20,007 bases of DNA from Anaerolineales bacterium (GCA_036525495.1 DATDAG010000321.1:1-20007); one strand, 5' to 3'. Shown: positions 2-17,203, counted from the first letter of the stretch. Notes: a model not told the origin generated them from the sequence alone. Translations and numbers: made by a program.

Positions 2-2023
2 TTCACTAAACCCATCATAAATTTATCAAATGCAGCCAATAGGATTACTGAGGGTGATTTGAGCGCAAGAGCAGAAGTTGAAACCACAGACGAAGTTGGT
101 GACCTGGCACAGGCAATTAACAAGATGACATCTCGACTTCAGCGCACTCTGCAAGGCTTGGAAGAGCGCGTCGCAGCTCGTACCCGCAATCTGGAACTGG
201 CGGCTGAAGTGGGTCGCACGGTCTCACAAGTGCGAGCACTCGATGTCATGTTGAAGGATGCTTGTAATCTCATCTTGAAGGAATTCAACCTGTACTACGT
301 GCAGGTCTACCTAACCGACCCCAGCCAGACCAATCTCATCCTAGAGGCAGGAACTGGAAATGCAGGTGAGCAATTACTTGGTCGCGGTCACAGCCTGCCG
401 CTCAACACAGGCTCGATCAACGGACGTGCGGCACTGGAAAAAAGATCAGTGGTGATTTCCGATACGACCAGGAGCGCCACATTCCGCCAAAACCCGTTAC
501 TGCCTGAAACACGTGGTGAAATGGCCGTGCCGTTGATCGTTGCTGACAAGGTGGTGGGTGTGCTCGATATGCAGACCAGTCAGCCTGGCGTATTGAACGA
601 AGAAGTACTCCCCGCATTCGAAGCGCTGGCTGGTCAACTGGCGGTCGCCGTTCAGAACGCCAACCTGCTCGCAGAAACCGAACAAGCCCGCGCCCAGGTT
701 GAATCCCAAGCTCGCCGCCTGGTACATGAAGGCTGGAGTGAACACCTGGATGCCATCCACAAGCCGGAACACTTTGGCTTCGCATTTGACCACAATCAGG
801 TTGTCCCACTTGCGGATGTGGACGAGTCAGATCTCCCCGAAGCCGGACACGCCATCTCAGCCTCGATCTCCGTGACGGGTGAGTCGTTGGGCTCCCTCGT
901 GGTGGAAATCGACGACGAAGCCCGCCGCGAACAAACGAATGAATTGGTCAATATCGTTGCCCGCCAGGTGGCGCAACAGATCGAAAACCTGCGCCTGCTG
1001 GAAAGCGCCGAGCGGTATCGCTTCGAAGCCGAACGGGCTGCCAGTCTTCAGACCATCGAGGGTTGGCAGAAATACGTTTCATCCAGAACCACAGAAAACC
1101 TGGGATACCTGTATGACACGAAGGAAGTCCGCCCGCACGGTAACGGCCGGTACGAAGACCTATCAATGTTTGCCACGCCCCTCAAGGCTCGTGACGAAAT
1201 GATCGGCAAACTGTCTGTGCAAGGTTTGACCCATGAAGACCAGGAATCTGTTGAGCTTGTCAATGCCGTTGCTGAACGTCTGGGCGCACACATCGAAAGT
1301 ATACGTCTGTTCGAAGAGACCAGGCATGGACAGGTCGAGTTGGACAAACGCGCACGACAACTGGCGGCTGTTGCCGAAATCAGTACTGCATCCTCTCAGG
1401 AACTGGATGTGGACAAACTGCTCAGCACGGTGGTGCAACTGACACAACGCCAATTCGGTCTGTATCACACGCACATCTTCACGTTCAACGAAGCGACTGG
1501 GGAGCTTCAGATCGCGGCGTGCGGCTGGCAGGAAGGCGACAAGCATGAAGGTACCAACGAAACTGTTTCCATCCCGTTGGACAGGGAACAATCGCTGGTT
1601 GCCCGCGCCGCCCGCACAAGAAAAGCCGTTATCGTGAATAATGTGTTCGTCGAACCCGGCTGGTTGCCCAACCCGATGCTGCCCGACACTGCCTCTGAAT
1701 TGGCTGTGCCGCTGGTGATCGGTGACCGGGTACTCGGTGTGCTGGATGTGCAATCGGACCGCATCAATGCCTTCACCGAAGAAGACGCCAGCATCCAGAC
1801 CACACTGGCTTCACAGGTAGCCACCGCCATGCAAAATGCGCGCTCCTTTACACAGGCGCAGAAACAGGCTGAACGCGAAAGTACCTTGAACGTTATCAAC
1901 CAGAAGATCCAAAGCGCCACTTCAGTGGAAGCCGTTCTGCAGATCGCCGCGCGCGAACTTGGTCACGCCCTGGGCGCGCCCATGACCGTCGCTCAACTAA
2001 GCATGAAGGATAAATCCTCTTAG
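2..2023 (+). CDS. HAMP + multi-GAF sensory protein, 5'-truncated by window edge, no transmitter (kinase) domain
   Basis: The frame is open from nt 2, with no stop before the listed Met at 59. The first ~50 codons read as a HAMP linker (PIINLSNAANRITEGDLSARAEVETTDEVGDLAQAINKMTSRL). Two full GAF-like domains are present (cores GEMAVPLIVADKVVGVLDMQ and SELAVPLVIGDRVLGVLDVQ), separated by two ~100-aa repeat modules ending in IENLRLL / IESIRLF. There is no H-box and no N/G1/G2 ATPase boxes. Stop is TAG 2021-2023. Confidence 0.85.
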   Translation, partial: FTKPIINLSNAANRITEGDLSARAEVETTDEVGDLAQAINKMTSRLQRTLQGLEERVAARTRNLELAAEVGRTVSQVRALDVMLKDACNLILKEFNLYYVQVYLTDPSQTNLILEAGTGNAGEQLLGRGHSLPLNTGSINGRAALEKRSVVISDTTRSATFRQNPLLPETRGEMAVPLIVADKVVGVLDMQTSQPGVLNEEVLPAFEALAGQLAVAVQNANLLAETEQARAQVESQARRLVHEGWSEHLDAIHKPEHFGFAFDHNQVVPLADVDESDLPEAGHAISASISVTGESLGSLVVEIDDEARREQTNELVNIVARQVAQQIENLRLLESAERYRFEAERAASLQTIEGWQKYVSSRTTENLGYLYDTKEVRPHGNGRYEDLSMFATPLKARDEMIGKLSVQGLTHEDQESVELVNAVAERLGAHIESIRLFEETRHGQVELDKRARQLAAVAEISTASSQELDVDKLLSTVVQLTQRQFGLYHTHIFTFNEATGELQIAACGWQEGDKHEGTNETVSIPLDREQSLVARAARTRKAVIVNNVFVEPGWLPNPMLPDTASELAVPLVIGDRVLGVLDVQSDRINAFTEEDASIQTTLASQVATAMQNARSFTQAQKQAERESTLNVINQKIQSATSVEAVLQIAARELGHALGAPMTVAQLSMKDKSS

Positions 2024-2051
2024 CAGGTTCCTGTTTGCAGGAGAATTGCCG

Positions 2052-3938
2052 ATGCCAAAGAATATATCCAGGAAACGGGTTGAGAAGTTGTTCTCAGAAA
2101 TACAACAACTTTCCTCCGATTCTAATGGACACCTACCTGAAAATCAGCCTGTACTAACCAAGCCTTTGGGTAGTGGAATACAGTCCAGTACTCCTGCCCT
2201 GTTGTTTCAGGAAGAAATAGATATCTTGCAGGCACGCGTGCTGGAATTGGAAGCGCGGCTCAAGGAAAGCGAAAAGCATGTCACTTCCACGCCCATCATC
2301 TATGAAAAGGAAGAGGTTGGATTTGCCTATGCCGGGGATAAGGTCATGCCGATTCGAGGCACCCAGCAATTGGTCCAGAACGAAGCGGATGTTATCAAGA
2401 CTCCATTGACCTCAAGCGGAAGAGCCATTGGTGAAGTCCAGGTTGCCCAACCGTCCGAACGTCCATTGACCCATGACGATATTAAACTCGCGAACACGAT
2501 CGCTCAGCAAGCCTCGCTTCAGATCGAAAACCTTCGCCTGCTCGCCGCCGCTGAACGCGCCCGCGCTGAAGCGGAAGAAGCCACCCACCAGTTGACACAC
2601 AAGAACTGGGAAACCTTCCTGGACGCCATCCACAACAGCGAACGGATCGGCTATGCTTACGATCAAGCATCGGTGGAGCCGTTTACGAATCCTGCCCCTG
2701 CGGATTTTGATCACGAAGAGACCATGCAGGTGCTCGATCAACAAATCGGCAGGTTCTTTGTCAAGGGCAAGGACGCAGTTTCACGAGAAGACAAGGCTCT
2801 CATCAGCGCAGTCGTTAAACAAGTTGGGCAACAGATGGAGAATATCCGCCTGCTTGCCGATGCCGCGCGCGCGCGCGCCGACGCAGAAGCCGCCACGCGC
2901 CGCCTTACCCGCGAAAACTGGCAATCCTATGCGGAACAAAACGAGACTGAGACGCTGGGCTTTGTCTACGATTCAAACATCGTTACGCCGATTGGATCAA
3001 TCCCAATCCCATACAATAACGCATTCGAACAGCCACTGGTCGTGCAAGGTGAATCCATAGGGCAATTGAAGGTGATGGGTATGCAGAATATTTCGACGGA
3101 TGCAAGAGGGCTTGCCGCCTCCATCGCTGCACAAGCCAGCATCCATCTTGAAACCCTGCGCCTGAATGAAGAATTGCAAAAGCGCGCGCGTGAATTGCAG
3201 GAACTTGACCGCCTAAAATCGGCGTTCCTTGCGAACATGTCGCATGAGTTGCGAACACCCCTGAACTCGATCCTCGGCTTTACAGATGTCATGCTCGAAG
3301 GTCTGGACGGTGAATTGACAGATTACATGGATAACGATCTGCGCCTCATTCAAAAGAACGGACAACACCTTCTGCATCTCATCAACGACGTTCTGGATAT
3401 GGCTAAGATCGAATCCGGGCGCATGAACTTGAATCCTGAAAATTTCAGAATCCACGATATCTTTGACGATGTCAACAGCATTACATCTTCACTGGCAAAT
3501 GCAAGAAACACCGAACTCATCATCGATGAAAAATCGGATGGCGAAGCGGAGATCTACGCAGACAGCACGCGCGTCAAACAGGTGATGATCAACCTCGTCA
3601 ACAATGCGATCAAATTTACAACAAATGGCAAGATTACCATGAGTGTATCCAGGATGGATGGTGCAAGAGTATTGATCTCGGTCAAAGATACCGGTCTCGG
3701 TATTCCTTCAGATCATCTCGAGGCAATCTTCCAGGAATTCACCCAGGTCGATACATCCACCACCCGTAAGGTCGGTGGTACAGGCCTGGGCTTGCCGATC
3801 AGTCGTCGTCTCATCGAAATGCACGGCGGACGCCTTTGGGCTGAAAGCACCGGCGTTGAAGGTGAAGGTTCAACATTCTTTATCGAAATGCCCCTCCAGG
3901 CGCGTATTACCGAAGTAATCGAAAAGCAGGAAAAATAA
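2052..3938 (+). CDS. Soluble sensor histidine kinase (coiled-coil N-terminus, three ~100-aa repeat modules, HisKA + HATPase_c)
   Basis: H-box SAFLANMSHELRTPLNSILGF, with the His codon at 3243-3245. N-box NLVNNAIKFT, G1 VKDTGLGIP, F IFQEFTQ, G2 GGTGLGLPISRRL. No hydrophobic TM segments. I prefer the ATG at 2052 (AGGAG at 2039-2043, 8-nt spacer) over the TTG at 2046 in the ORF track (2-nt spacer). Confidence 0.9.
   Translation: MPKNISRKRVEKLFSEIQQLSSDSNGHLPENQPVLTKPLGSGIQSSTPALLFQEEIDILQARVLELEARLKESEKHVTSTPIIYEKEEVGFAYAGDKVMPIRGTQQLVQNEADVIKTPLTSSGRAIGEVQVAQPSERPLTHDDIKLANTIAQQASLQIENLRLLAAAERARAEAEEATHQLTHKNWETFLDAIHNSERIGYAYDQASVEPFTNPAPADFDHEETMQVLDQQIGRFFVKGKDAVSREDKALISAVVKQVGQQMENIRLLADAARARADAEAATRRLTRENWQSYAEQNETETLGFVYDSNIVTPIGSIPIPYNNAFEQPLVVQGESIGQLKVMGMQNISTDARGLAASIAAQASIHLETLRLNEELQKRARELQELDRLKSAFLANMSHELRTPLNSILGFTDVMLEGLDGELTDYMDNDLRLIQKNGQHLLHLINDVLDMAKIESGRMNLNPENFRIHDIFDDVNSITSSLANARNTELIIDEKSDGEAEIYADSTRVKQVMINLVNNAIKFTTNGKITMSVSRMDGARVLISVKDTGLGIPSDHLEAIFQEFTQVDTSTTRKVGGTGLGLPISRRLIEMHGGRLWAESTGVEGEGSTFFIEMPLQARITEVIEKQEK
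2864..2878. repeat. (CG)7 alternating dinucleotide tract inside the kinase coding sequence
   Basis: cgcgcgcgcgcgcgc read directly at 2864-2878. It encodes part of AARARAD within repeat module 2 of the kinase. Confidence 0.9.
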
Positions 3939-5603
3939 ATGGCAACACCCAAGTATCTCGAATGTAACCTCTGCGGCGATCAACAACCCTACAAACCCTT
4001 CGTGCCTGCGATATGCACCAAATGCGAATCACAGTGGCTGGAAGCGCGGTACGATTACGATGCCTTCAAACGTGAGGTCCTGCGCGGGCTTCCGAATCGC
4101 CCCTCCAACATGTGGCGTTATCAGGATGTCTTGCCACTGGAGGATCCCTCTGCCCTGGACCTTTACCCCGCGGGCGGAACTCCGCTCTGGCTCTCACATC
4201 GCTTCGCTCCCGCCCTTGGGCATGATCTGGTCTACATCAAAGACGAACGTTACGGTTCGACATCTTCTTTCAAAGACCGCCAAGCCGCCGGCGCGGTTGC
4301 AGCCATGTTGGAAAACAGCATCAAAGAAGCGGTCATCGCTTCCACTGGTAACGCCGCTGTGGCATACGCCGCCGCCTGCGCCCGCGCAGGAATCAAGCTC
4401 TGGGTCTTTATGACCAGCCTCGTGCCGCAGGAAAAATTGCACGAAGCCGCCCTCTTCGGCGCAGAAGTGATTCGAGTAAGCGGAAATTACGATCAGACCA
4501 AACAGATCGCATCCCAATTTGCGCAACGACGCAATCTACTGCTCGACCGCGGAGCCACATCCATACCGGCGCGCGAATCCATGAAAACCATCACCTATGA
4601 GATCGTCGAACAACTCGGCTGGCATGCGCCCGACTGGTATATCCAGGCTGTAAGCGGAGGCTTGGGGCCACTCGGTGTATATTCGGGTTTCAAAGAATTG
4701 TTGAACATGGGCTTGATCGATCACATTCCAAAACTGGCGATTATCCAAACCGAAGGTTGTGCGCCGATGGTCAATGCCTTCAAAGCCGGAAAAGATGTCG
4801 CCGAGCCGGTCATTCCTGAAACCAGCATCATCATCCTGTCAACAGGCGATCCCGGCAAAGCATTTACGTATCTATGGAATCTCACACAGCACCATGGCGG
4901 TGTGATGGAATCCGTAACGGATGCAGAAGCATTTGCCGCAATGCGGGCACTGGCAAAAAGCGAGGGAATGGCTGTCGAACCGGCAACATCTGTCGCCTTC
5001 GCCGGACTCGAGAAGTTGATCCGCAATGGTACGATCAAATCTGACGAGAAGGTCGTTGTCAATTGTACCGGTCATACCTTTCCTGTCGAAAAGCATGTGC
5101 TCGGCGATCAATGGGCTGTGGATGTGCATCTTAGTGAGGACCAGTCCCCCGCGCCACATGAAGGCTTGCAGGCAGCGCTCGAAAATCTCGATGAGAAAAC
5201 GAAAACCGTTTTACTGGTGGATGACAATTCAGACGATGCCCTGCTGATCCGCCGATTACTTGAAGGTTACAAGGCTTATCGTGTCTTTCATGCAAAAGAT
5301 GGCAGGGAGGGACTGGCAATGGCTCGGCAAAAACTGCCCGACCTCATCGTCTCTGATCTCACCATGCCCGGTATAGATGGTTTTGGGCTGGTCGAGGAAC
5401 TCAAACTCGATCCGCGCACAAAAGACATTCCGGTGGTTGTTGTCAGCGCGAAGGATATTACAGCGGATGAACGAAAGAGGCTGAATGGTCATATCCAGGC
5501 TGTGTATCAAAAAGGCTCATTGTCCACCAAAAAATTCGTGAGCCAGGTGATCGATGTCATCGAGGAATCAGGCGAAACGCAGGAGCAGGGAGAAAAGGCA
5601 TGA
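3939..5603 (+). CDS. Threonine-synthase-family (fold-type II PLP) enzyme fused to a C-terminal response-regulator receiver domain
   Basis: One uninterrupted 554-codon ORF. The ATG at 3939 directly abuts the kinase stop TAA 3936-3938. The N-terminal zinc ribbon is CNLC...CTKC, followed by the WRYQDVLPLED motif, the PLP-lysine motif SSFKDR (Lys codon 4272-4274), ASTGNAA, the GGLGPLG phosphate loop and a C-terminal NCTGHT. A linker of ~35 aa follows, then a REC domain (nt ~5202-5558) with LLVDDN, the phospho-acceptor D in LIVSDLTMPGIDG (codon 5355-5357), VVVVSA and YQKG. Confidence 0.85.
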   Translation: MATPKYLECNLCGDQQPYKPFVPAICTKCESQWLEARYDYDAFKREVLRGLPNRPSNMWRYQDVLPLEDPSALDLYPAGGTPLWLSHRFAPALGHDLVYIKDERYGSTSSFKDRQAAGAVAAMLENSIKEAVIASTGNAAVAYAAACARAGIKLWVFMTSLVPQEKLHEAALFGAEVIRVSGNYDQTKQIASQFAQRRNLLLDRGATSIPARESMKTITYEIVEQLGWHAPDWYIQAVSGGLGPLGVYSGFKELLNMGLIDHIPKLAIIQTEGCAPMVNAFKAGKDVAEPVIPETSIIILSTGDPGKAFTYLWNLTQHHGGVMESVTDAEAFAAMRALAKSEGMAVEPATSVAFAGLEKLIRNGTIKSDEKVVVNCTGHTFPVEKHVLGDQWAVDVHLSEDQSPAPHEGLQAALENLDEKTKTVLLVDDNSDDALLIRRLLEGYKAYRVFHAKDGREGLAMARQKLPDLIVSDLTMPGIDGFGLVEELKLDPRTKDIPVVVVSAKDITADERKRLNGHIQAVYQKGSLSTKKFVSQVIDVIEESGETQEQGEKA

Positions 5604-5980
5604 AACCCAACATCCTGTATATTGAAGATCATTCCGACAATATGACGCTTGTCAAAAGGATATTCCGACCGGACAGTTATAATCTGATCGAAGCATGGAC
5701 AGGATTTCAGGGTATAGCCATTGCTGAAAGCCAGAATATCGACCTTGTTTTGCTGGATATCAACCTGCCGGATATGGATGGGTACGAGGTAGCCCACCGT
5801 TTACGGGCAAGCACAAAACCCGAATTAGCCAATACACCGATTATTGCGGTCACAGCCAATGCAATGAAAGGTGATGCAAAAAAGGCAATGGACGCCGGAT
5901 GTAACGATTATATGTCCAAGCCCATCAACATTGTGGATCTTTTTGAAAAAGTTGAAACTTTGATTGCAAATAAGATTTGA
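5600..5980 (+). CDS. Single-domain CheY-like response regulator (receiver only)
   Basis: ILYIEDHSDN acidic pocket, LVLLDINLPDMDG phospho-acceptor Asp, IIAVTANA, YMSKPI Lys. The ATG at 5600 overlaps the upstream stop (ATGA, 5600-5603). GGAG lies 7 nt upstream. Confidence 0.9.
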   Translation: MKPNILYIEDHSDNMTLVKRIFRPDSYNLIEAWTGFQGIAIAESQNIDLVLLDINLPDMDGYEVAHRLRASTKPELANTPIIAVTANAMKGDAKKAMDAGCNDYMSKPINIVDLFEKVETLIANKI

Positions 5981-5991
5981 GGTATTAGTTC

Positions 5992-6369
5992 ATGACACAT
6001 AACATCCTATACATTGAAGATAACCCGGATAACACAACACTCGTCAGGCGCGCCCTGGAATCGCGCGGGTATAAACTTTTTCATTCCCCGAACGGTACGC
6101 GCGGGGTCAGCATGGCTGAGGAGGAAGATATTGCCCTAGTCCTGCTTGATATCAACCTGCCTGACATTGACGGCTATGAAGTGGCACGACGTTTGCGATC
6201 CAGCAAAAAACGTGAACTATCTACTGTTCCGATCATTGCTGTGACGGCGAACGCACTCAAAGGTGATGCGGAAAAGGCATTGGAGGCTGGCTGTGACGTA
6301 TACATGTCCAAGCCCATTAATATCCGCGAACTATGGGCACGTGTGGAAGCTTTCGTACCGGCTGCGTAG
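5992..6369 (+). CDS. Single-domain CheY-like response regulator, tandem paralogue of 5600-5980
   Basis: ILYIEDNPDN, LVLLDINLPDIDG, IIAVTANA, YMSKPI. In my ungapped hand alignment, 73 of 125 positions are identical to the upstream gene. The intergenic gap is 11 nt, with GAGG overlapping the upstream stop. Confidence 0.9.
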   Translation: MTHNILYIEDNPDNTTLVRRALESRGYKLFHSPNGTRGVSMAEEEDIALVLLDINLPDIDGYEVARRLRSSKKRELSTVPIIAVTANALKGDAEKALEAGCDVYMSKPINIRELWARVEAFVPAA

Positions 6370-6452
6370 GAAACTATCGTGATACACTCGGGAGACGATG
6401 ATCTGCTTCGTACAGTGTTTCATTACAAGTCAGCATCATTGTTTCCAGGATC

Positions 6453-7619
6453 ATGACATATTCTCATCTTTCTCATTTGAAATGTTCAGGTTGTAGCAGG
6501 GAATTCTCCGCGCGGGAAATCCATACCTACTGTCCTGATTGCCAGTCACCGCTTCTGGCAATCTATGATTTAAAGCAGGTACGCAGCCAAGTGGGCCGGG
6601 ATGAAATTACCCGCCGCCGAAAAGGGATGTGGCGCTGGCAGGAACTGCTCCCCATTGCCGATCAGGAAAATGTCGTATTCCTTGGAGAGGGCGATACCGC
6701 CTTGCTAAGAGTCTCCAATTTGGGCAGAGAACTTGGGCTTGCCAATCTTTTTGTAAAAGACGAAAGCACAAATCCTACTGGATCCTTCAAAGCCAGGGGG
6801 TTGGCGGCCGCTGTATCCAAGGCAAAAGAGTTGGGGATCAAAAAGGTGATTATCCCCACAGCAGGCAACGCGGGTGGGGCGATGGCGGCTTATGCTGCAC
6901 GCGCGAATATTCAAGCTATGATCTATATGCCCAAGGATACACCACGCGCTAATGTTGAAGAGAGCCGTATAGCAGGTGCGGAGGTCATCTTGATTGATGG
7001 GCTGATCAGTGACGCGGCTGGTCTGGCGGGAGAGAAAGCACGTGCAGAGGGGTGGTTTGATTTATCCACGTTTAAAGAGCCGTATCGCACAGAAGGAAAG
7101 AAGGTCATGGGGTATGAACTTGCAGAAGCCTTCGATTGGACATTACCCGATGTAATCATCTACCCCACCGGGGGAGGCACAGGTCTTGTCGGAATGTGGA
7201 AGGCATTTGCCGAACTCGAGGAATTGGGGTGGTTGGAAAACACAAAAAGACCGCGTATGGTAGCTGTACAGGCGGAAGGTTGCGCGCCAGTCATCAAGGC
7301 GTTTGAAAGTGGCGCGGAGTTTTGTGATTTTTGGATAAACGCACATACTCTGGCATCCGGGTTGCGGGTGCCAAAAAGTTTTGCTGATGCTTTGATCCTG
7401 AAAGACCTGCGCGCGAGTAACGGGACGGCTGTTTCGGTCAGTGACGAATCGATCTTACAGGCACAAAGTCAACTAGGCAGGCTGGAGGGGATCTTTGCCG
7501 CACCGGAAGGAGCAGCGACACTTGCGGCGCTTGTGACACTTCTCGAGCAAAAGTGGATCTCACCTAATGAGCGCGTGGTACTGTTCAATACCGGTTCCGG
7601 CTTGAAATATCTTGAATAG
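6453..7619 (+). CDS. thrC: Threonine synthase, archaeal-type with N-terminal zinc ribbon (PLP-dependent)
   Basis: Zinc ribbon CSGC...CPDC, WRWQELLPIAD, canonical VKDESTNPTGSFKARG (Lys codon 6789-6791), PTAGNAG, EPYRTEGKKV, PTGGGTGLVG, C-terminal FNTGSGLKY. The family assignment is solid. Whether this is the housekeeping thrC cannot be decided from the window. Confidence 0.8.
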   Translation: MTYSHLSHLKCSGCSREFSAREIHTYCPDCQSPLLAIYDLKQVRSQVGRDEITRRRKGMWRWQELLPIADQENVVFLGEGDTALLRVSNLGRELGLANLFVKDESTNPTGSFKARGLAAAVSKAKELGIKKVIIPTAGNAGGAMAAYAARANIQAMIYMPKDTPRANVEESRIAGAEVILIDGLISDAAGLAGEKARAEGWFDLSTFKEPYRTEGKKVMGYELAEAFDWTLPDVIIYPTGGGTGLVGMWKAFAELEELGWLENTKRPRMVAVQAEGCAPVIKAFESGAEFCDFWINAHTLASGLRVPKSFADALILKDLRASNGTAVSVSDESILQAQSQLGRLEGIFAAPEGAATLAALVTLLEQKWISPNERVVLFNTGSGLKYLE

Positions 7620-7705
7620 TAATGGCAGTGTATGAAATAACGGGGACAACTAAATAACGATCAGTGTAGGCAAAATTTCTTAGTTCAGGAACAGTTACCG
7701 GGAAG

Positions 7706-7734
7706 TTAGAGGCGGGGCTTGTCAGTGATAGAAT
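7706..7734 (+). promoter_or_regulatory. Possible sigma70-like promoter with extended -10 upstream of the third receiver gene
   Basis: TTAGAG (7706-7711), a 17-nt spacer, then TGaTAGAAT (TG at 7726-7727, TAGAAT at 7729-7734), about 37 nt before the GTG start at 7771. It lies in the only large (151 nt) gap of the operon. This is a motif match only, and the consensus for this organism is unknown. Confidence 0.25.
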
Positions 7735-7770
7735 CATTTTTTCTGGCAAAAATTATGGAAGGAGGAGTCC

Positions 7771-8142
7771 GTGGCAAAGATCCTTTATATCGAGGATATT
7801 CAAGATAACATCACACTTGTGGAAAAGATCGTTACATCGCGCGGGCATGAATTCCTATTCGCGCATAGCGCTGAAGAGGGATTGGAGATGGCGGTCATGT
7901 CCAGGCCAGACCTGATCCTGCTCGATCTGGGTTTGCCGGATGCCGACGGTCAGACCCTTTCCGTATGGTTGAGAGGCGATCCCGCTTTAGCCTCTGTCCC
8001 CATCATTGTTCTAACTGCCTGGCCCGAGGAGGTGGCGCGCCAAACCGTCGACGCCTACAATCTGAACGGATATCTATGTAAACCATTCTCCCTGTCAAGT
8101 TTGGTAAAGATGATCGATTCTGTTCTGGACTCAAAGTCATAA
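7771..8142 (+). CDS. Single-domain CheY-like response regulator (more divergent third copy)
   Basis: GTG start with GGAGG at 7761-7765 (5-nt spacer). ILYIEDIQDN, LILLDLGLPDADG, IIVLTAW, LCKPF. Confidence 0.85.
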   Translation: MAKILYIEDIQDNITLVEKIVTSRGHEFLFAHSAEEGLEMAVMSRPDLILLDLGLPDADGQTLSVWLRGDPALASVPIIVLTAWPEEVARQTVDAYNLNGYLCKPFSLSSLVKMIDSVLDSKS

Positions 8143-8999
8143 TGTCGATCGAGATCATACCGGCAGATCGTTTCACGATTCAGGAATTGACCGATCTCTA
8201 TAATCAAACAAGGGTGGATTATCTCGTTCCGATGCCAATGAACGCAGACAGGTTAAATGAATATATACACGACTTCAATGTTGACTTGCGGCGATCCGGT
8301 GTTGCGCGCGATGCGAATGGGCAGGTGCTCGGGCTGAGCATGTTGGGCATTCGACAGGAAATGGCATGGGTCACCCGCCTGGGAATTTTGCCGTCTTCCC
8401 GCCGAACCGGTGCCGGTTCACTATTAATGGATTTCATGTTGAACAATGCTGATACACTTGGAATGAAAGAGACTCATCTGGAAGTGATCAAGAACAACGA
8501 ACCTGCCTATACACTGTTCTTGAAGAAGGGATTTGTCGAATCAGGAACATATCTGGTCATGCGCCATGCACCACGCCCGCTATCGGATTCTCTTCAAGGG
8601 GATGTGACATGGCTTGATTTCGAGAAGGCGCTGGAAAAACTTGAAGACTATCCAGAGCATATTACATGGATCAACGCCTTGGAGTCCATGCAAAATTCGC
8701 CAAATACCGAAGGCCTGCAAATAAATTTCCCGGATGGCACATCGGGCTGGCTGGTATACCGCAACACAAAATTTACACTAAGATCGACGCTTAGTCATTT
8801 GATCATGCACACCGAACAGGGGAAACCACAGAATGTTGGCATGCAACTTTTATCCCATTTACACACCCGTTACCTGCATCACGATACCTACGCGGAGAAC
8901 ATACACGAAAACGACCCGCATCTCCCAGCCTTCCATGCATTGGGATATTTTACAAACTTCTCGCGGATCGAAATGCGACGACAAAGGGATGGGAATTAA
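8142..8999 (+). CDS. GNAT-family N-acetyltransferase with a C-terminal second, degenerate GNAT-like half
   Basis: The start overlaps the upstream stop by 1 nt (TAATG at 8140-8144). Acetyl-CoA motif A reads VTRLGILPSSRRTGAGSLLMDFML, followed by NNEPAYTLFLKKGF. The C-terminal ~140 aa end in ENDPHLPAFHALGYFTNFSRIEM, which resembles the end of a GNAT fold but lacks the R/QxxGxG/A loop. Confidence 0.75.
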   Translation: MSIEIIPADRFTIQELTDLYNQTRVDYLVPMPMNADRLNEYIHDFNVDLRRSGVARDANGQVLGLSMLGIRQEMAWVTRLGILPSSRRTGAGSLLMDFMLNNADTLGMKETHLEVIKNNEPAYTLFLKKGFVESGTYLVMRHAPRPLSDSLQGDVTWLDFEKALEKLEDYPEHITWINALESMQNSPNTEGLQINFPDGTSGWLVYRNTKFTLRSTLSHLIMHTEQGKPQNVGMQLLSHLHTRYLHHDTYAENIHENDPHLPAFHALGYFTNFSRIEMRRQRDGN

Positions 9000-9089: not shown

Positions 9090-10886
9090 ATGAAAGGTTG
9101 GAACGAGAAAATTTTAGAGATTGACCTGGCAACGGGCATTGTGCGTACCGTGCCCTTGGATATGGACATGGCGCGCCTATTCATTGGCGGGCGCGGACTA
9201 GGCGCTCGTTTACTGTGGGATTTGGTCGGCGTGGAAGTTGATCCACTCTCGCCTGAGAATGTGCTCATCATTGCCAATGGCCCGCTGACCGCCACCGGCT
9301 ACCAGACCAGCAATCGGTTTTCGATCACCACCAAAAGCCCGCTAACGGGCACAGTGCTCGATGCGAATTCCGGGGGCTTTTGGGGAATGCAGTTCAAGAA
9401 AACCGGTTACGATGCGCTTGTGATCCACGGCAGAGCTGAAAAGCCAATGTGGATCGAAATCAAGAACGGCGGTGCAACTCTGCATGACGCGTCGGCGTTA
9501 TGGGGGCGGCGAGTGTTCGATGTTACGAAAACGCTTGGGCAAAACAATAACCAACGCAATGTATTGTGCATTGGTCCCGCGGGCGAGAATCTGAGCCGCA
9601 TTGCCGCCATCATGAACGACGGCGAACGCGCGGCGGCGCGCGGCGGTGTAGGCGCAGTGATGGGCTCGAAAAACCTGAAAGCGGTCGTAGTGGAGGGTAA
9701 GGAAAAAACAGAGGTCGTCGATAAAGAACAATTCAAATTCATGCTCTACGAAGCCAGGAAACTGCTCGCCGCCAATCCTGTCACCAGCCAGGCGTTGCCG
9801 GAGTTTGGCACGGCAGTGATAATGAACCTGATGAACAATATTGGGGCACTTCCCACGCGCAACTTCCAGCAATCGCACTTCGAAGGCGCGGAGGAGATCT
9901 CCGGCGAAGCACTGACCGAAAAATATCTGGTCAGGAATGCCTCCTGCTGGGCATGCCCCATCGGCTGTACGCGTATCACCAGGACCGACAAGGTCGAAGG
10001 CGAGGGGCCCGAGTTTGAATCCACTTGGTCTTTTGGCGCATCATGCGGGGTGGATGATCTCTCGGCGATCATCGAAGCCAATAATCTTTGCAACGACCTG
10101 GGATTTGACACAATCTCTGCCGGGGCAACGATTGCCTGCGCGATGGAACTCAGCGAAAGGGGATATATCGATTCGCCTCTGCGCTTTGGCCGCGCAGACC
10201 TGTTGGCTCCCACACTGGAGGATATGGCATTCCGACGCGACCTAGGCGCGGATCTCGCCGAAGGTTCGCTGCGGCTGGCAGAGAAATATGGGCATCCCGA
10301 ATTATCTATGTCTGCCAAGGGGCTCGAGCTCCCGGCGTATGATCCACGCGGCATGCAGGGACAGGGCTTGTTGTTCGCCACGTCGAACCGGGGCGGCTGT
10401 CATATGCGCGGCAACATGCTCGGACTGGAAGTGCTCGGCTTGCCCAAGCTGATAGACCGATTCCAGGTTCAGGGAAAAAGCAGTTTTGTCATCCTGCACC
10501 AGAACTCCAACGCGGCAATCGATTCTCTTGTATTATGCAAATTCACCAACATTGGCGTGGCGGAGGAATACTTTGCGCGGGTATTGACCGCGGTGACGGG
10601 CGTTCCCTACTCGACCGGTGATTTGATCAAGGCTGGGGAGCGCATCTGGAATCTGGAACGAATGCTGAATCTCCGCTTTGGCTTTACTCACGCCGATGAC
10701 ACACTGCCCCCACGTCTACTGACCGAACCTGTTGTGGAAGGCGCCTCGAAGGGTTGGGTGGTACAACTTGACCCCATGCTCAGGGAATACTATCGTACGC
10801 GCGGATGGGACGAGAACGGTATGCCGAAGGCGAAAAAACTGGCAGACCTGGAGCTGGCAGGCTTGATGGAAGGAGAAACCTCATGA
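9090..10886 (+). CDS. aor: Aldehyde:ferredoxin oxidoreductase family (tungstopterin/[4Fe-4S] enzyme)
   Basis: Typical AOR N-terminus MKGWNEKILEIDLATG...FIGGRGLGARLLWD. Cluster cysteines in ASCWACPIGC plus LVLCKF. Pterin-binding-type motifs NDLGFDTIS and RGGCHMRG. AGGAG at 9078-9082 lies 7 nt from the ATG. Confidence 0.9.
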   Translation: MKGWNEKILEIDLATGIVRTVPLDMDMARLFIGGRGLGARLLWDLVGVEVDPLSPENVLIIANGPLTATGYQTSNRFSITTKSPLTGTVLDANSGGFWGMQFKKTGYDALVIHGRAEKPMWIEIKNGGATLHDASALWGRRVFDVTKTLGQNNNQRNVLCIGPAGENLSRIAAIMNDGERAAARGGVGAVMGSKNLKAVVVEGKEKTEVVDKEQFKFMLYEARKLLAANPVTSQALPEFGTAVIMNLMNNIGALPTRNFQQSHFEGAEEISGEALTEKYLVRNASCWACPIGCTRITRTDKVEGEGPEFESTWSFGASCGVDDLSAIIEANNLCNDLGFDTISAGATIACAMELSERGYIDSPLRFGRADLLAPTLEDMAFRRDLGADLAEGSLRLAEKYGHPELSMSAKGLELPAYDPRGMQGQGLLFATSNRGGCHMRGNMLGLEVLGLPKLIDRFQVQGKSSFVILHQNSNAAIDSLVLCKFTNIGVAEEYFARVLTAVTGVPYSTGDLIKAGERIWNLERMLNLRFGFTHADDTLPPRLLTEPVVEGASKGWVVQLDPMLREYYRTRGWDENGMPKAKKLADLELAGLMEGETS

Positions 10887-11494
10887 TTGATGAACGCATC
10901 TACGAAATGTTCCGCGAGATCGGGCACGATATGTACGTTGCCAACATGATCTCGTCCCACGGCGGCAACCTCAGCATCCGCCTGGGAGACCGGGTCATCA
11001 TCAAGCGGCGCGGCGCAATGTTGGGCAATCTCAAAAAGCATGATCTGATCGAAACCGGACTGGAAAAGAACGATAGCGGTGTGACTTTGGCATCCACCGA
11101 ACTATTGGTGCATCGCGCCATTTACATGAACACCCCCGCCCTGGCGATATGTCACTGTCACCCGCGCACGGCAATAGCCTTTTCTCTTTCGCGCGACGAG
11201 ATCGTCCCTGTTGACAACGAAGCATCGTATCTCTTGAAGAAAGTCCCCGTGATCAGTGAAGAGTTTGCCTCCGGCACACCGGAGATGGCAAAGAAGGTTG
11301 CCAGTGCGCTCGAAAATTATAAGATCATCATGTTGCGCGGGCATGGCAGTTTTGCAACCGGGCAGACCCTCGATGAAGCCTTTCAGTGGTCGTCCACGCT
11401 CGAGGAATCCTGCCAGATCACGTTGTGGACGAAGATGATCGACGAGCCGTTCATCGAATACCGCAAAATGAGTGGATCATATAATAAGTTCTAA
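10883..11494 (+). CDS. Class II aldolase/adducin-family protein (FucA / MtnB-like)
   Basis: SSHGGNLSIR, metal-ligand HCHP, MLRGHGSFATGQTLDEA. I chose the ATG at 10883 (AGGAG 10871-10875, 7-nt spacer, ATGA overlap with the aor stop). The upstream extension from 10805 in the ORF track lies wholly inside aor. Confidence 0.8.
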   Translation: MIDERIYEMFREIGHDMYVANMISSHGGNLSIRLGDRVIIKRRGAMLGNLKKHDLIETGLEKNDSGVTLASTELLVHRAIYMNTPALAICHCHPRTAIAFSLSRDEIVPVDNEASYLLKKVPVISEEFASGTPEMAKKVASALENYKIIMLRGHGSFATGQTLDEAFQWSSTLEESCQITLWTKMIDEPFIEYRKMSGSYNKF

Positions 11495-12989: not shown

Positions 12990-13649
12990 CTATCCGTTCA
13001 ATTTGATCAATCCCATTTTCACTGCCGCAAGCACCGCCTGGGCACGGTTGGGTTGTTTCATTTTTTCAAGAATATTCTTAGCGTGGCTTCGCACGGTCTC
13101 TTCACTGACGCTCAACTGCACCGCGATCTGCTTGTAGGTATTCGGCGTTGCCATGTATTCCACTATTTCCATTTCGCGCGGTGTAAGTGAAACAGGATGT
13201 GGTTGGTGCGGCTGCATCATCTCGATCACTTTCTTCATCACATCCGGATGCAGATACGCCTCACCATTCATCACCGCATGAATGGCTCGCACCAACTCCC
13301 CCGGCTCGATATTTTTCAACACATATCCTTCAATGCCCGCCGCTACCACTTCATGCACGCGGTCGTCCACTTCCGTGCCGGTCAACATCATGATCTTGAT
13401 ATCCGGATTCGACTTGCGCAATGCCAGCGCCATTTCCTGCCCGTCCATTTCAGGCATGACCAGATCCACAAGGACGATATCTGGATCGAGACTCTTTGCC
13501 AACTCCAAACCGATTCGTCCATTCTCCGCTTCGTCTACGACCTCGAAATCTGATTCCTGACGAAGGACCATCACCAATCCCTTACGGACTACTGCGTGAT
13601 CGTCAATGAGAAGGATGCGGATGCGATCAGGCATGATGATGGTGTCCAT
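12990..13649 (-). CDS. NarL/LuxR-family response regulator (REC + HTH)
   Basis: ILLIDDHAVVRKGL, IVLVDLVMPEMDG, IMMLTG and the LuxR-type HTH LTPREMEIVEYMATPNTYKQIAVQLSVSEETVRSHAKNILEKM. The start is ATG at 13649 or at 13634 (MPDRIRILLIDD). Either overlaps the kinase stop at 13627-13629. Confidence 0.9.
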   Translation of the reverse strand: MDTIIMPDRIRILLIDDHAVVRKGLVMVLRQESDFEVVDEAENGRIGLELAKSLDPDIVLVDLVMPEMDGQEMALALRKSNPDIKIMMLTGTEVDDRVHEVVAAGIEGYVLKNIEPGELVRAIHAVMNGEAYLHPDVMKKVIEMMQPHQPHPVSLTPREMEIVEYMATPNTYKQIAVQLSVSEETVRSHAKNILEKMKQPNRAQAVLAAVKMGLIKLNG

Positions 13650-15312
13650 TGATGGGGATATTGATCATGATACGCGTGCCTGCATTGGGTTGTGAATTGA
13701 TCTCGAAGTCACCGCCTAGGGCTTTTGTACGTTCCTGCAGTCCGCGTAAGCCAAAGTGCTCGCGGTTCTGACTGCGTGATATGGCAATCTCCGGGTCAAA
13801 TCCTTTGCCTTCATCAGATACCACTAAATAGATTTCGTCATCCGTCACCGTTAGACACAACCGTGCAGACTGCACTCCCGAATGCCGTGCAGAGTTTGCC
13901 AATGCCTCCTGCGCCATGCGATAGACCGTCCGCCGCATACCAGAAGAGAGGGAATTGAAATCGCCGTTATTGTTGAAGATGATGCTGAACCGCCGCGGAC
14001 GACAACAACTGCTGACGTAGTTCGTCAGGTCAGCCATGAAAAGCTCCATCGTGAGCGCGGAGGGCCACAGATCAAAGATGGAGCGGCGGACTCCGTCGTG
14101 GGCGTTATTGGCGAGCGCGCGCAATTCGATCAATTCTGTTTTTACGTCATCTGCTTTTGCAGGGAGCATGTTAATGCAGGCATCGAGGCTGTAAACGATT
14201 CCAAAGAGCGATTGCGCCACTGTATCGTGGATGTCGCGTGCAATGCGGTTGCGCTCGGTTTCGACGGCGAGGCGTCGGGCGCGGTCAATGCACAGGATGG
14301 TCGTACCAAGCGCGAGGGCGGCTTGATTCGCAACAGTCATCAGGGTGTTTTCGCGCTCTTTATTGATCCCCGTTTCGTCGACGAGGAGAAGCCCGACAGG
14401 GTGTTCCCGCAAGTAAAGCGGAAGCACAAGCCATTTGTTTTGATTGAGCCAGTTGTTGAGGGCAGGGTCGCGGACAAGGGTCCCGCCATTTGAAATGAAA
14501 TTGTTGCGATTTAATAAGGCCTTGAAAACTTCACCATTCTCTGACTTGAGGGGCAGTGTTTCTGTTTTGGGAAATGATTCCTCTTTGGGATATACCAACC
14601 AGCCGCCAAGTTCCTCGCGCGCGGGGTCAACCAATGCAACAACCGCTTTTGAAAAGCCAAGGTCGGTTGTGACCGCGCCGAGCACGCGCTCCTGAACGGA
14701 CAACAGGTCGGGCGCCGCCTGCAATAATATGGTGAGGTCGTGGATGATCTCCAACTGGCGGTGCGCGTTCGCAAGGTCTTCATTTGCCTGGTTTATGGAT
14801 TTGAGCAGATTGGATGAGTATGCAAACAGCATGGGGATTAACCATATGCCTGTCAATTGGGTTGTCATGGCTGTGACATTCATTTGCAGGTTGAGTATTT
14901 GTAATCCAATCAGTTCACCTGTGATATAAAGAAGTGTAAATATCAGGGATGCGATCAGCGCTCCTCTCATTTGAAAGAAAAATGCTCCTGCCAGCAATGG
15001 ACCTAGAGCATAGAGATAATACGGACTTTCGTGACCGCCACTGACCGCAAGGAGCCCGGCTGTGAAGATCAGGTCCACGCTTAGAAAAGCAGGGTGTTCC
15101 ACTACAATTCTATTGAGTTGGCGATTTGTCAGGGAAATGATGATGTTCGCAAGCAATGCAATGGCTAACAATAAGACAGGTGATATTGATCGGGCAGGCT
15201 GGTCTTGAAAGGCAATTCCAAAGAATACTGGAAGTAGCGACGCCCAGCGAAAGATAACCAAAAATGAAAAAACGCGGTTAGGTTGAAAAATTGACAGTAG
15301 TTTTTTGTACAT
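13627..15312 (-). CDS. Membrane sensor histidine kinase (about 6 TM, GAF, HisKA_3, HATPase_c), NarX/DegS-type
   Basis: The N-terminal ~170 aa are hydrophobic helices with only short loops. A GAF-like region contains LVLPLYLREHPVGLLLVDE. HisKA_3 H-box ERNRIARDIHDTVAQSLFG. ATPase boxes EALANSARHS, VSDEGKGF and GLRGLQERTKALGG. The protein ends NGHHHHA. No obvious SD precedes the ATG at 15312. Confidence 0.9.
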   Translation of the reverse strand: MYKKLLSIFQPNRVFSFLVIFRWASLLPVFFGIAFQDQPARSISPVLLLAIALLANIIISLTNRQLNRIVVEHPAFLSVDLIFTAGLLAVSGGHESPYYLYALGPLLAGAFFFQMRGALIASLIFTLLYITGELIGLQILNLQMNVTAMTTQLTGIWLIPMLFAYSSNLLKSINQANEDLANAHRQLEIIHDLTILLQAAPDLLSVQERVLGAVTTDLGFSKAVVALVDPAREELGGWLVYPKEESFPKTETLPLKSENGEVFKALLNRNNFISNGGTLVRDPALNNWLNQNKWLVLPLYLREHPVGLLLVDETGINKERENTLMTVANQAALALGTTILCIDRARRLAVETERNRIARDIHDTVAQSLFGIVYSLDACINMLPAKADDVKTELIELRALANNAHDGVRRSIFDLWPSALTMELFMADLTNYVSSCCRPRRFSIIFNNNGDFNSLSSGMRRTVYRMAQEALANSARHSGVQSARLCLTVTDDEIYLVVSDEGKGFDPEIAISRSQNREHFGLRGLQERTKALGGDFEINSQPNAGTRIMINIPINGHHHHA

Positions 15313-15818: not shown

Positions 15819-16343
15819 ATGTCAAAATCTGATCCGAATGCTCCGAAGAGACTGGCTCTCATTTCCAGCAAAGGGACTCTTGATTGGGCCTATCCCCCAT
15901 TCATTCTTGCGACTGCAGGAGCTGCGATGGGTTGGGAGGTAGGCGTTTTCTTTACCTTTTTCGGCTTGCCCCTGCTAAAACCAAAACTGACTGCCGCAGT
16001 CTCACCTTTGGGCAACCCAGCCATGCCGATGAAAATGCCCTTTGGACCTGAAGGTTTCCAGAATATCAATTGGCCCATGCCAAACCTGCTCATGGCGAAC
16101 GTGCCCGGATTTGAATCGGTTGCCACGAGCCTGATGAAACAGACTTTCAAGAACAAAGGTGTGGCTACCATTGAAGAGATGCGCGATATGGCGGTCGAAA
16201 TGGATGTTCGCCTGATCGGTTGCCAAATGACAATGGATGTCTTCGGGTTTAAAAGAGAAGACTTCATTTCAGAAGCAGAGATCGGCGGCGCGGCGACCTT
16301 CCTAGAATATGCTGCAGACGCGGATGTGCAGTTGTTCATCTAA
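15819..16343 (+). CDS. DsrE/DsrF-like family sulfur-transfer protein (long, COG2210-like form)
   Basis: KRLALISSKGTLDWAYPPFILATAGAAMGWEVGVFFTFFG and the C-terminal IGCQMTMDVFG...GGAATFLEYA...LFI are typical of the family as I recall it. There is a single Cys (codon 16221-16223). GAGAGG lies 5 nt before the ATG. Confidence 0.75.
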   Translation: MSKSDPNAPKRLALISSKGTLDWAYPPFILATAGAAMGWEVGVFFTFFGLPLLKPKLTAAVSPLGNPAMPMKMPFGPEGFQNINWPMPNLLMANVPGFESVATSLMKQTFKNKGVATIEEMRDMAVEMDVRLIGCQMTMDVFGFKREDFISEAEIGGAATFLEYAADADVQLFI

Positions 16344-16347
16344 TTGG

Positions 16348-16382
16348 AAATCGGCGGCTTAAGATCACTTAACCGCCGATTT
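16348..16382 (+). terminator. Strong hairpin immediately after the dsrE-like stop; terminator/attenuator-like
   Basis: AAATCGGCGGCTTAAG-atca-CTTAACCGCCGATTT forms a stem of about 15 bp with one bulged C (16358) and a 4-nt loop. It is followed by ATATAAAA, so the U-tract is poor (TTT lies partly in the stem). Confidence 0.45.
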
Positions 16383-16407
16383 ATATAAAACCCGGAGTGG
16401 AGAAAAG

Positions 16408-16746
16408 ATGGACGATTTTTCTGTAAAACACGAACTCAACGGAAACGTAGCTGTAGTTACCGTTTCAGGCAGAGTGGATTCTTTTACTGCCTCAATGCTG
16501 GATACTGAACTGGCAAAAATTGTACGCGAAAATAAACAGTTGGTATTGGATCTCAAGGAAGTGGTGTATATGTCATCCGCGGGGGTACGCGCCATCGTCA
16601 GGACATTACAGACTGCACAAAAGTCAAATGGCGGGGTCAGTCTGGCTTGTGTCACCGAGTCTGTTGAAACGGTCTTACGGACCGTCGGAATGTTGGAATT
16701 ACTCAAGGTGTATCCATCTGTGGATGAAGCAGTTGCAAGTTTCTAA
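16408..16746 (+). CDS. STAS-domain protein (anti-sigma-factor antagonist, SpoIIAA/RsbV-like)
   Basis: The 112-aa protein aligns by hand to B. subtilis SpoIIAA around the phospho-serine: LDLKEVVYMSSAGVRAIV versus LNLEDLSFMDSSGLGVIL, so Ser57 here matches Ser58 there. The C-terminal VLRTVGMLELLKVYPSVDEAV is typical of the family. GGAG lies 5 nt upstream, and the gene ends in a double stop TAATAA. Confidence 0.8.
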   Translation: MDDFSVKHELNGNVAVVTVSGRVDSFTASMLDTELAKIVRENKQLVLDLKEVVYMSSAGVRAIVRTLQTAQKSNGGVSLACVTESVETVLRTVGMLELLKVYPSVDEAVASF

Positions 16747-16767
16747 TAAAAAGAGGAGAGGGCAGTT

Positions 16768-17163
16768 ATGTGGAAATCGAACGACCCTGATGAGAAAAAG
16801 ATCTTGTACGTCCAAACTCACGGAAGGAAAGACCCCGAGCGGACGGCTACGCCGTTCTTTCTCGCGACCGCCGCGGCCGCAATGGACAACGAGGTCTGCA
16901 TCTACTTTACGATGAACGGACCACAGTGTCTATCAAAAGGTGCGGGAGATGAGATCGTTGTTCCCAAGGCGGGAGGCGGTGGGAGGGAACTGAAATACTT
17001 CATCGACCAGGCAATTGACATGGGCGTGCGGCTCTTTGTCTGTCAGCCATCGCTCGACCTGCATGGTTTCACAATGGATGACATGATCGAGGGTGTGGAG
17101 ATGATCGGTGGCGCTGCATTCAATGACATGGCTGTTCATGCCGATGCAGTGATTTCTTTTTAG
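16768..17163 (+). CDS. DsrE-family protein (short, COG2044-like form)
   Basis: KKILYVQTHGRKDPERTATPFFLATAAAAMDNEVCIYFTMNG and RLFVCQPSLDLHGF...IGGAAFNDM...VISF. The Cys in VCQPS sits at the position equivalent to GCQMT of the other paralogue. GAGGAG lies 9 nt upstream. Confidence 0.7.
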   Translation: MWKSNDPDEKKILYVQTHGRKDPERTATPFFLATAAAAMDNEVCIYFTMNGPQCLSKGAGDEIVVPKAGGGGRELKYFIDQAIDMGVRLFVCQPSLDLHGFTMDDMIEGVEMIGGAAFNDMAVHADAVISF

Positions 17164-17203
17164 CGTCTCAACGATCCCACGTTTCAACATTTTAGGAGGC
17201 ACA

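Follow-up and report, generated by a model that had tools for sequence, protein, structure and literature searches.

Positions 2 to 8999 of a 20,007-nucleotide (nt) stretch of DNA from an Anaerolineales bacterium (GCA_036525495.1 DATDAG010000321.1:1-20007), which we call the window, carry a cassette of eight genes, g1 to g8, that combines two-component signalling proteins with metabolic-type enzymes. Its signature protein is g3, in which an N-terminal Cys4 zinc ribbon and a fold-type-II pyridoxal phosphate (PLP) domain resembling threonine synthase (ThrC) are followed by a linker and a C-terminal receiver (REC) domain, an architecture that we abbreviate as PALP-REC after the Pfam domain PALP. 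The conserved unit built around this fusion consists of one or more sensors, a histidine kinase, the PALP-REC protein, a stand-alone receiver of the g7 type and a tandem GNAT protein, joined in most lineages by a further receiver of the g5 type, and it is conserved across the class Anaerolineae of the phylum Chloroflexota. We propose, at a probability of roughly 45 %, that the cassette encodes a branched two-component pathway with enzymes and not promoters as its targets, in which phosphorylation of the receivers would directly control a PLP enzyme and an acetyltransferase.

The original prediction, made from the DNA of the window, had described eight same-strand genes with junctions of 28, 0, -4, 11, 83, 151 and -1 nt; a listing of open reading frames (ORFs) and their translation place all eight genes on the plus strand and return identical junctions. 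One transmitter and four receivers had been counted, and both numbers are borne out by Pfam and by alignment to E. coli CheY, all four receivers being complete and the two-component transmitter being g2 with its HisKA domain, H-box histidine and HATPase_c domain. The sole non-signalling domains are indeed two ThrC-family PLP proteins (g3 and g6) and the tandem GNAT g8, found by Pfam and, for the GNAT, by a structure model. The receivers had also been said to lack a classical output, in keeping with which Pfam detects neither DNA-binding, GGDEF/EAL or CheB domains nor an Hpt domain in g1 to g8.

Conservation of the cassette

The family comprises over 6,000 clusters, formed at 90 % identity, that scored at E ≤ 1e-10. 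Among 1.8 billion representative proteins searched exhaustively, the PALP-REC architecture occurs in several clusters at 50 % identity. PALP and Response_reg share one chain not only in g3 but in thousands of related proteins, among them a large clade of PALP-REC-REC proteins of ~700 amino acids (aa), retrieved by a word-indexed search from P0122 and labelled as Chloroflexota, Anaerolineae, Aggregatilineales or Anaerolineaceae.

Six distant loci (L081, L084, L087, L090, L091 and L092) were compared, in which the fusion protein is 49–53 % identical to g3 and the flanks are unrelated and differ from locus to locus. All six share a common order of a long GAF/PAS/HAMP kinase, PALP-REC(-REC), one or two free receivers and a GNAT of ~290 aa, often with a dCache- or HK_sensor-HAMP-GAF protein in front of the kinase. 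The recurrence of kinase, PALP-REC, free receivers and GNAT at this level of fusion identity answers in the affirmative the question of a conserved neighbourhood that the original prediction had raised. Reciprocal BLAST shows that two receiver orthogroups hold their position. The receiver before the GNAT is g7-type in all six loci and 38–44 % identical to g7, and the first receiver after the fusion, where two are present, is g5-type and 47–50 % identical to g5 (L081, L084, L090); the g5-type receiver is missing from L087, L091 and L092. The distant GNATs, 36–40 % identical to g8 over the full length, end the cassette in every case, and the canonical ThrC encoded by g6 occurs in none of the six. 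Two other loci deviate from this order: L085 holds a hybrid kinase, the fusion and an EamA transporter but no GNAT, and at L086 the fusion adjoins an ornithine carbamoyltransferase and a degenerate receiver.

Near-identical cassette proteins are also present in metagenome-assembled genomes (MAGs) labelled Pseudomonadota, Ignavibacteriales and Armatimonadetes (L009; P0334; P0504). These proteins are 78–89 % identical to Anaerolineales counterparts, the "Armatimonadetes" one being 60 % identical to the Chloroflexota-labelled PALP-REC-REC clade, and in view of these identities and the mostly short contigs they most likely reflect binning errors and not cross-phylum transfer.

For the close relatives, the best 80 of 283 loci encoding a g3 relative, found in a scan that took one genome for each GTDB species, were analysed by tblastn and ORF clustering; 61 of these 80 loci have at least 3.5 kb of downstream sequence. 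Here g3 is 81–91 % identical, and the nearest genomes, among them Candidatus Villigracilis, are MAGs of Anaerolineales. The fusion gene is preceded by two to four GAF/HAMP/kinase genes, the last of them encoding a kinase of ~620 aa. The g2-type kinase was found by tblastn in 77/80 loci, directly 5' of the fusion gene where the upstream sequence suffices, and the g5-type receiver follows the fusion gene in 78/80 at 69–86 % identity, so kinase, fusion and g5-type receiver are syntenic in virtually all 80. With median identities of 84 % for g3, 77 % for g5, 75 % for g6 and 55 % for the kinase, g3 is better conserved than any other gene of the region, as would be expected of a hub with several partners.

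The downstream part of the cassette is more variable. g6 is present in 41/80 close loci, always on the same strand and 0–83 nt behind a receiver, and among the 61 loci with sufficient downstream sequence the ThrC is present in 36 and the GNAT in 8; these include 2 loci with both, and 19 loci carry neither. g4 is a clade-specific paralogue of g5, found as a second copy in some close loci only. g6 and g4 are thus additions specific to the clade of the window, and the two ThrC-family outputs of the original prediction hold for the 41 close loci but not for the distant cassettes, that is, for part of one clade only.

The PALP-receiver fusion protein

The PALP domain of g3 (Pfam E 4e-68, residues 78-378) finds its best structural-sequence matches in the solved ThrCs 2ZSJ, 1UIM, 2D1F and 6CGQ. 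As it scores below the curated threonine-synthase thresholds (236 vs 303 for NF006050 and 156.8 vs 167.1 for TIGR00260), we call it ThrC-like and not ThrC; other fusion proteins are likewise under the cut-off, with NF006050 scores of 250–266 vs 303. Public annotations of the fusion read "threonine synthase", "pyridoxal-phosphate dependent enzyme" or "hypothetical protein". Neighbour-joining places the fusion proteins in a single clade within a ThrC-like subfamily, and a stand-alone family, P0129, is nested in this clade or sister to it. The hallmark of the subfamily is an SGGxGP PLP-phosphate loop, at which Thermus ThrC has GNAGN and g6 has GGGTG.

In an alignment of seven divergent fusion proteins the four zinc-ribbon cysteines are invariant. 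The Schiff-base lysine is invariant across the fusion family, in which little or no variation is seen either at the zinc cysteines, at the S/T-G-N and Gly-rich loops or at the T/S of the C-terminal xGH motif. Because the PLP-binding and catalytic residues are retained to this extent, the g3 domain very probably binds PLP and has the architecture of an active enzyme.

The subfamily is an uncharacterised one and not obviously a housekeeping ThrC. Its stand-alone members are 42–51 % identical to g3, several apparent ones being fragments on contigs of 1–2.5 kb. The P0129 gene sits amid housekeeping genes, and P0132 and P0135 lie on short contigs whose context gives no pathway clue. The gene for P0140 (L093 2091-4989), a stand-alone protein 42 % identical to g3, has a 4-nt overlap with a radical-SAM/SPASM gene, and genes for a TauE-type exporter and an Fe-alcohol dehydrogenase lie 3' of it. 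None of these contexts led to an assigned pathway, and that of P0140 suggests that part of the ThrC-like subfamily performs specialised and not housekeeping chemistry.

Sensor, kinase and receivers

Pfam assigns to g1 a HAMP domain (residues 2-47) and two GAF domains, without a transmitter. The protein runs from HAMP over GAF and degenerate GAF-like repeats to a second GAF and begins 5' of the window; in the closest relative (L003) its orthologue has ~1086 aa. g2 is a soluble histidine kinase in which three degenerate GAF-like repeats with IENLRLL helices precede HisKA (E 3e-19) and HATPase_c (E 4e-29), Pfam also recognising C-terminal GAF fragments. The IENLRLL repeats represent the C-terminal helices of degenerate GAF modules. 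The H-box histidine codon that had been placed at 3243-3245 was confirmed as CAT, and its HExxT context, which we take to be typical of bifunctional HisKA kinase/phosphatases, suggests that g2 is such a bifunctional enzyme. The kinase core of g2 is closest to the cores of hybrid kinases, e.g. TorS, BarA and LuxQ.

In distant relatives (including L081, L087, L090 and L091) the g1-like and g2-like parts form a single polypeptide of 1271–2753 aa with many GAF/PAS repeats, and they stay separate genes in the window and its close relatives. Since sensor and kinase are fused in several relatives, we consider g1 and g2 to be functionally tied. The complete kinase genes of L081, L087, L090 and L091 stop directly after the ATPase domain, and the L085 kinase carries a C-terminal receiver, which makes it a true hybrid kinase.

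The sensors of related cassettes are HAMP-GAF proteins with dCache or HK_sensor domains, or are encoded downstream of a gene for a solute-binding-like protein. In several close relatives the operon starts with such a gene for a periplasmic protein, 5' of the HAMP-GAF genes, either of the phosphonate-binding type (PF12974, PhnD-type) or of the NMT1/THI5 type. These genes were found at L005, L018 and L021 (~1.8-2.8 kb) and at the upstream ends of L011, L029, L031, L042, L053, L068 and L079; the counterpart region falls 5' of the window. The solute-binding-like genes hint at an extracellular small molecule as the input of the pathway.

All four receivers of the window retain the acidic pair and the equivalents of Asp57, Thr/Ser87 and Lys109 of CheY, and the receivers of the distant loci likewise retain the DD/ED, D57, T/S87 and K109 equivalents. 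g5, which defines the g5 type, is a receiver of the DivK or hybrid-kinase kind. g4 and g5 share the motif TANAxxGD, typical of DivK and of hybrid-kinase receivers, and are most similar to the receivers of hybrid kinases such as BarA, TorS, ArcB, RcsC and HrmK. The g7 type is marked by a conserved TAWP motif after beta4 and is always encoded directly 5' of the GNAT.

The tandem GNAT and the canonical-looking threonine synthase

Pfam finds a GNAT domain in the N-terminal half of g8, and an alignment-based AlphaFold model with a pLDDT (predicted local distance difference test) value of 89 shows a tandem GNAT fold. The best Foldseek matches of this model are tandem GNATs (E ~3e-13, TM 0.6-0.7) that share only 12–17 % identity with g8, an identity from which its substrate cannot be inferred. 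The acetyl-CoA motif RRTGAG lies in the N-terminal domain; in alignments R87 and G92 are invariant and R88 and G90 are conserved to at least 90 %.

g6 has a PALP domain (Pfam E 7e-75) and a zinc ribbon, passes the ThrC models with 573 vs 303 bits (NF006050) and 180.5 vs 167.1 (TIGR00260), and aligns with solved ThrCs, the SFKDR lysine, the S/T-G-N loop and the Gly-rich PLP-phosphate loop all being present. A ThrC homologue termed MetM forms homocysteine from O-phosphohomoserine and is reportedly often misannotated as ThrC; in Streptomyces it is described as accompanied by an adjacent ThiS/MoaD-like carrier, MetO, and an upstream S-adenosylmethionine (SAM) riboswitch (Hasebe 2024). The ORF listing contains no MetO-like small carrier beside g3 or g6, and Rfam gives no match to a SAM riboswitch, or to any other riboswitch or known RNA, in the window. 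g6 may be a ThrC or a MetM-type homocysteine synthase, and the same would apply to g3 in principle.

Proposed pathway and alternative explanations

In the branched pathway that we favour, the soluble, GAF-rich kinase g2, encoded together with the membrane or extracytoplasmic sensor g1, would phosphorylate the receivers in parallel. ThrC-family enzymes are dimeric, and dimerisation upon phosphorylation is common among receivers; phosphorylation of the g3 receiver would alter the activity or the oligomeric state of the normally dimeric PLP domain. The g3 enzyme would catalyse a beta/gamma-elimination or replacement on an amino acid, probably a phospho-ester such as O-phosphohomoserine. g5 and g4 would either serve as a sink for phosphate or feed back on the kinase in the manner of DivK. 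g6 would have been recruited behind g5 in the clade of the window, with the pathway touching there the O-phosphohomoserine node, from which threonine or methionine, or another product, can be made; the position of a canonical ThrC gene directly behind g5 hints at this link. Phosphorylated g7, finally, would bind and regulate the GNAT g8, for which a precedent is EpsW, a single-domain regulator of Myxococcus xanthus reported to activate a phosphoglycosyl transferase (PGT) by direct binding (PMC12802240).

Several observations weigh against this proposal. In g3 the receiver follows the enzyme domain, which is not the layout of most enzymatic response regulators, and a role as sink or sensor fits this arrangement equally well. 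At the position equivalent to Arg160 of Thermus ThrC, presumably the residue that binds the phosphate of O-phosphohomoserine, the window's clade has Arg and the ~700-aa clade Lys, with Val in three small groups (P0125, P0130 and P0129); in the surrounding region g6 retains PYRxEG and g3 shows PAR-ES with a one-residue deletion. Owing to this variation a phospho-ester substrate for g3 is plausible and not established. The GNAT fold of g8 points to no acceptor, and the reaction on a phospho-amino acid with a possible N-acetylation step that the original prediction had suggested is a putative one. Adjacent g7 and g8 are present in only 10/80 close loci (8/61 with enough downstream sequence), and as most loci of the window's clade lack this pair, the PLP and GNAT arms are separable. 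The search for Hpt domains, moreover, covered the cassette proteins, and genes for an Hpt protein and for a DNA-binding regulator may lie elsewhere in the genome.

The position of the g3 receiver is also the starting point for a reversed assignment, unlikely in our view, in which the ThrC-like domain is an input: as a sensor of a (phospho-)amino acid it would gate its own receiver, making g3 a metabolite-dependent sink or connector, and the free receivers would hold the real output, directed to the GNAT and to unlinked targets. A C-terminal receiver is found in hybrid kinases and sink-type receivers, the sister clade with two tandem receivers per PLP domain would suit a sink, the scores below the ThrC cut-offs and the variable putative phosphate-binding position fit a domain used for sensing, and the very high conservation of g3 fits a signalling hub with many partners. 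On the other hand, the lysine, the S/T-G-N and SGGxGP loops and the T/S of the xGH motif are invariant as in an active enzyme, and stand-alone relatives of the subfamily are found in metabolic contexts, which argues for catalysis. The original prediction had spoken of a phosphorelay, and a true multi-step relay would make g2 and g5 a split hybrid kinase that passes phosphate through an unlinked Hpt protein to g3, g7 and probably a DNA-binding regulator, with transcription as the main output. The resemblance of the g2 core and of the g4/g5 receivers to hybrid kinases points in this direction, as does the truly hybrid kinase 5' of the fusion gene at L085. We regard such a relay as quite improbable: there is no Hpt or Spo0B-like domain in the eight proteins by Pfam or among the domains listed for related cassettes, the close and distant loci compared share no transcription-factor gene within or next to the cassette, and g5 cannot be an obligatory relay step since its type is missing from three of the six distant cassettes. 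As no Hpt domain was found, we describe the system as a branched two-component pathway and not as a demonstrated phosphorelay.

Doubts about membership concern g6 in particular, which might be a neighbourhood accident, a housekeeping ThrC or MetM-type gene that is merely co-transcribed in one Anaerolineales clade. It is absent from all distant cassettes and from 25/61 close loci with enough downstream sequence, it clears the curated ThrC model comfortably, and a leader ORF and a possible own promoter precede or follow it. Its constant strand and its distance of 0–83 nt behind the receiver, with several loci at 0–5 nt, speak for a functional tie, and a ThrC-family gene beside a ThrC-like fusion would be a notable coincidence; we thus hold an accident to be unlikely, though a serious contender. 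That the whole eight-gene set is a chance juxtaposition is scarcely conceivable. REC, GNAT and PALP domains are generic enough to meet by chance, but for the core this explanation was ruled out by the synteny in 80 genomes and the shared order in six loci at ~50 % identity, and the two receiver orthogroups hold their position.

A more specific form of the branched pathway, which we offer tentatively and would ourselves doubt in its full extent, is that Anaerolineae switch amino-acid chemistry directly through a two-component pathway, with the ThrC-like enzyme acting at the O-phosphohomoserine (or O-phosphoserine) node and a second phospho-receiver gating an acetyltransferase that acts on the product or on a protein target. 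If true, an extracellular cue would lead to the synthesis of an (N-acetylated) non-standard amino acid, or to a re-routing of threonine and methionine flux, without transcription; the PLP enzyme would represent a new class of two-component output and would be the first threonine-synthase family member under the control of phosphorylation.

Gene organisation and neighbouring genes

The features of the cassette are collected in Table 1. A simple scan predicted no terminators in the intergenic gaps. The original prediction had suggested an upstream ORF (uORF) bridging the 83-nt gap between g5 and g6, and this reading frame exists: MIHSGDDDLLRTVFHYKSASLFPGS begins 10 nt past the g5 stop, and its TGA overlaps the g6 ATG. 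The start motif (A/G)TGATA(A/C)A(C/T)TC is found again in many related loci whose gaps measure 66–83 nt, and other close loci couple the receiver to the ThrC directly, at 0–5 nt. A classical thr-leader attenuator was ruled out for the uORF, whose peptide has a single Thr codon. A thr operon 3' of g6 in relatives was likewise ruled out, genes for LacI, glycosidase, sugar ABC transporter, MBL, MFS and hydrolase proteins being found there instead in varying combination.

The 151-nt gap in front of g7 (7620-7770) contains an extended -10-like element, TGATAGAAT, at ~7727-7735, and a strong Shine-Dalgarno sequence, GGAAGGAGGAG, precedes the GTG start of g7. On account of these two elements an internal promoter is possible, and g7 and g8 may be driven separately from within the gap.

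Table 1. Coordinates of the cassette genes and of selected sites within them, counted from the first nucleotide of the window.
Feature	Position	Strand	Remarks
g1 sensor ORF	2..2023	+	ORF listing; 5' end cut by window edge
g2 kinase ORF	2046..3938 (TTG 2046) or 2052..3938 (ATG 2052)	+	ORF listing
g2 H-box His codon	3243..3245	+	CAT, in SHELRTPLNS
g3 PALP-receiver fusion ORF	3939..5603	+	ORF listing
g3 zinc ribbon	3963..4025	+	Cys-x2-Cys...Cys-x2-Cys: C9, C12, C26, C29
g3 PLP Schiff-base Lys codon	4272..4274	+	SFKDR; aligns with Lys61 of Thermus ThrC
g3 receiver	5208..5558	+	Response_reg E 5e-17, residues 424-517; acceptor Asp codon 5355-5357
g4 free receiver ORF	5600..5980	+	Start overlaps g3 stop (ATGA)
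g4 acceptor Asp codon	5756	+	Stand-alone Response_reg, Pfam E 1e-26
g5 free receiver ORF	5992..6369	+	ORF listing
g5 acceptor Asp codon	6148	+	Stand-alone Response_reg, Pfam E 4e-25
uORF	6379..6456	+	25 codons, GTG 6379 to TGA 6454-6456; TGA overlaps g6 ATG
g6 canonical-looking ThrC ORF	6453..7619	+	ORF listing
g6 PLP Lys codon	6789	+	Codon position read from sequence
g7 free receiver ORF	7771..8142	+	GTG start
g7 acceptor Asp codon	7924	+	Stand-alone Response_reg, Pfam E 3e-18
g8 tandem GNAT ORF	8142..8999	+	Start overlaps g7 stop by 1 nt

Behind the cassette, the interval 9090-11494 encodes a tungsten-type aldehyde:ferredoxin oxidoreductase (AOR; AFOR_N and AFOR_C) and, after it, a class II aldolase (NF006413, 204 vs 203 bits) whose real start is probably further downstream, as the longest ORF overlaps the AOR gene by 82 nt. 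This pair never recurs in related loci, where the genes further downstream differ and include those for LacI, glycosidases, a sugar ABC transporter, MBL, MFS, hydrolases, a channel and DnaJ. On the minus strand, 12990-15312 holds a second, ordinary-looking two-component pair that consists of a LuxR/NarL-type regulator (12990-13649) and, overlapping with it, a membrane kinase (13627-15312) that ends in a C-terminal His run, GHHHHA; the families of this pair were assigned by eye from the translations. Two small DsrE/DsrF-like ORFs and subsequent Cys-rich HdrC/HdrB-like ORFs at 15819-19202, likewise judged by eye, look like a sulfur-carrier/Hdr-like cluster.

Comparison with known systems

Two-component outputs are mostly transcriptional or consist of second-messenger enzymes, to which PALP-REC and the GNAT would add a direct control of primary or specialised amino-acid metabolism. 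The family is abundant, and its hosts are filamentous Anaerolineae, which are dominant in activated sludge, anammox and groundwater communities. Almost none of these organisms is in culture, and any clue to the signals they perceive and to their responses is of value. For pathway reconstruction the cassette also calls for caution, as ThrC, MetM and other activities can be confused under the label "threonine synthase". The original prediction had put the organisation forward as a candidate for an undescribed module. A literature search found neither a fusion of a PLP or ThrC-like domain with a receiver nor the cassette, which does not prove their absence from the literature; the cassette is thus real, conserved and undescribed as far as is apparent. 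To our knowledge, a PLP-dependent ThrC-like output domain is not part of the published output-domain censuses.

In general layout the fusion resembles the enzymatic response regulators CheB, PleD/WspR with GGDEF domains, RpfG with HD-GYP and the PP2C-type RsbU-like proteins, having an intact receiver joined to an enzyme, a kinase encoded adjacently and no DNA-binding domain. In contrast to all of these, the enzyme of g3 is a fold-type-II PLP protein and its receiver is C-terminal and sometimes doubled, not N-terminal, and its product would be an amino-acid metabolite instead of a second messenger or a modified signalling protein. With ThrC (NF006050/TIGR00260) and MetM, g3 shares the Cys4 zinc ribbon and the PALP fold; it differs from ThrC in scoring under both cut-offs and in belonging to a separate subfamily with the SGGxGP loop. 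Regulated ThrCs are known from plants, where they are activated by SAM and use an N-terminal extension, not a receiver.

The presence of one kinase with several single-domain receivers recalls the DivJ/PleC-DivK circuits and the CheY1/CheY2 sinks of Sinorhizobium; unlike these systems, the cassette has two enzymes, and its neighbourhood is without cell-cycle or chemotaxis machinery. The stand-alone receiver g7 resembles EpsW in being encoded beside an enzyme, and both g7 and the g3 receiver match the EpsW model, if weakly. The partner of g7 would be a tandem GNAT and not a PGT, and their interaction is suggested by the conserved adjacency and the start/stop overlap of the two genes. g8, in turn, is similar to the tandem GNATs CBG of the clavulanate pathway (2WPX), MAB_4324 (7Q3A), VipF, the glucosamine N-acetyltransferase 5KF1, MshD (1OZP) and Eis, and it is set apart from them by its pairing with a receiver protein, which is reported for none of these enzymes.

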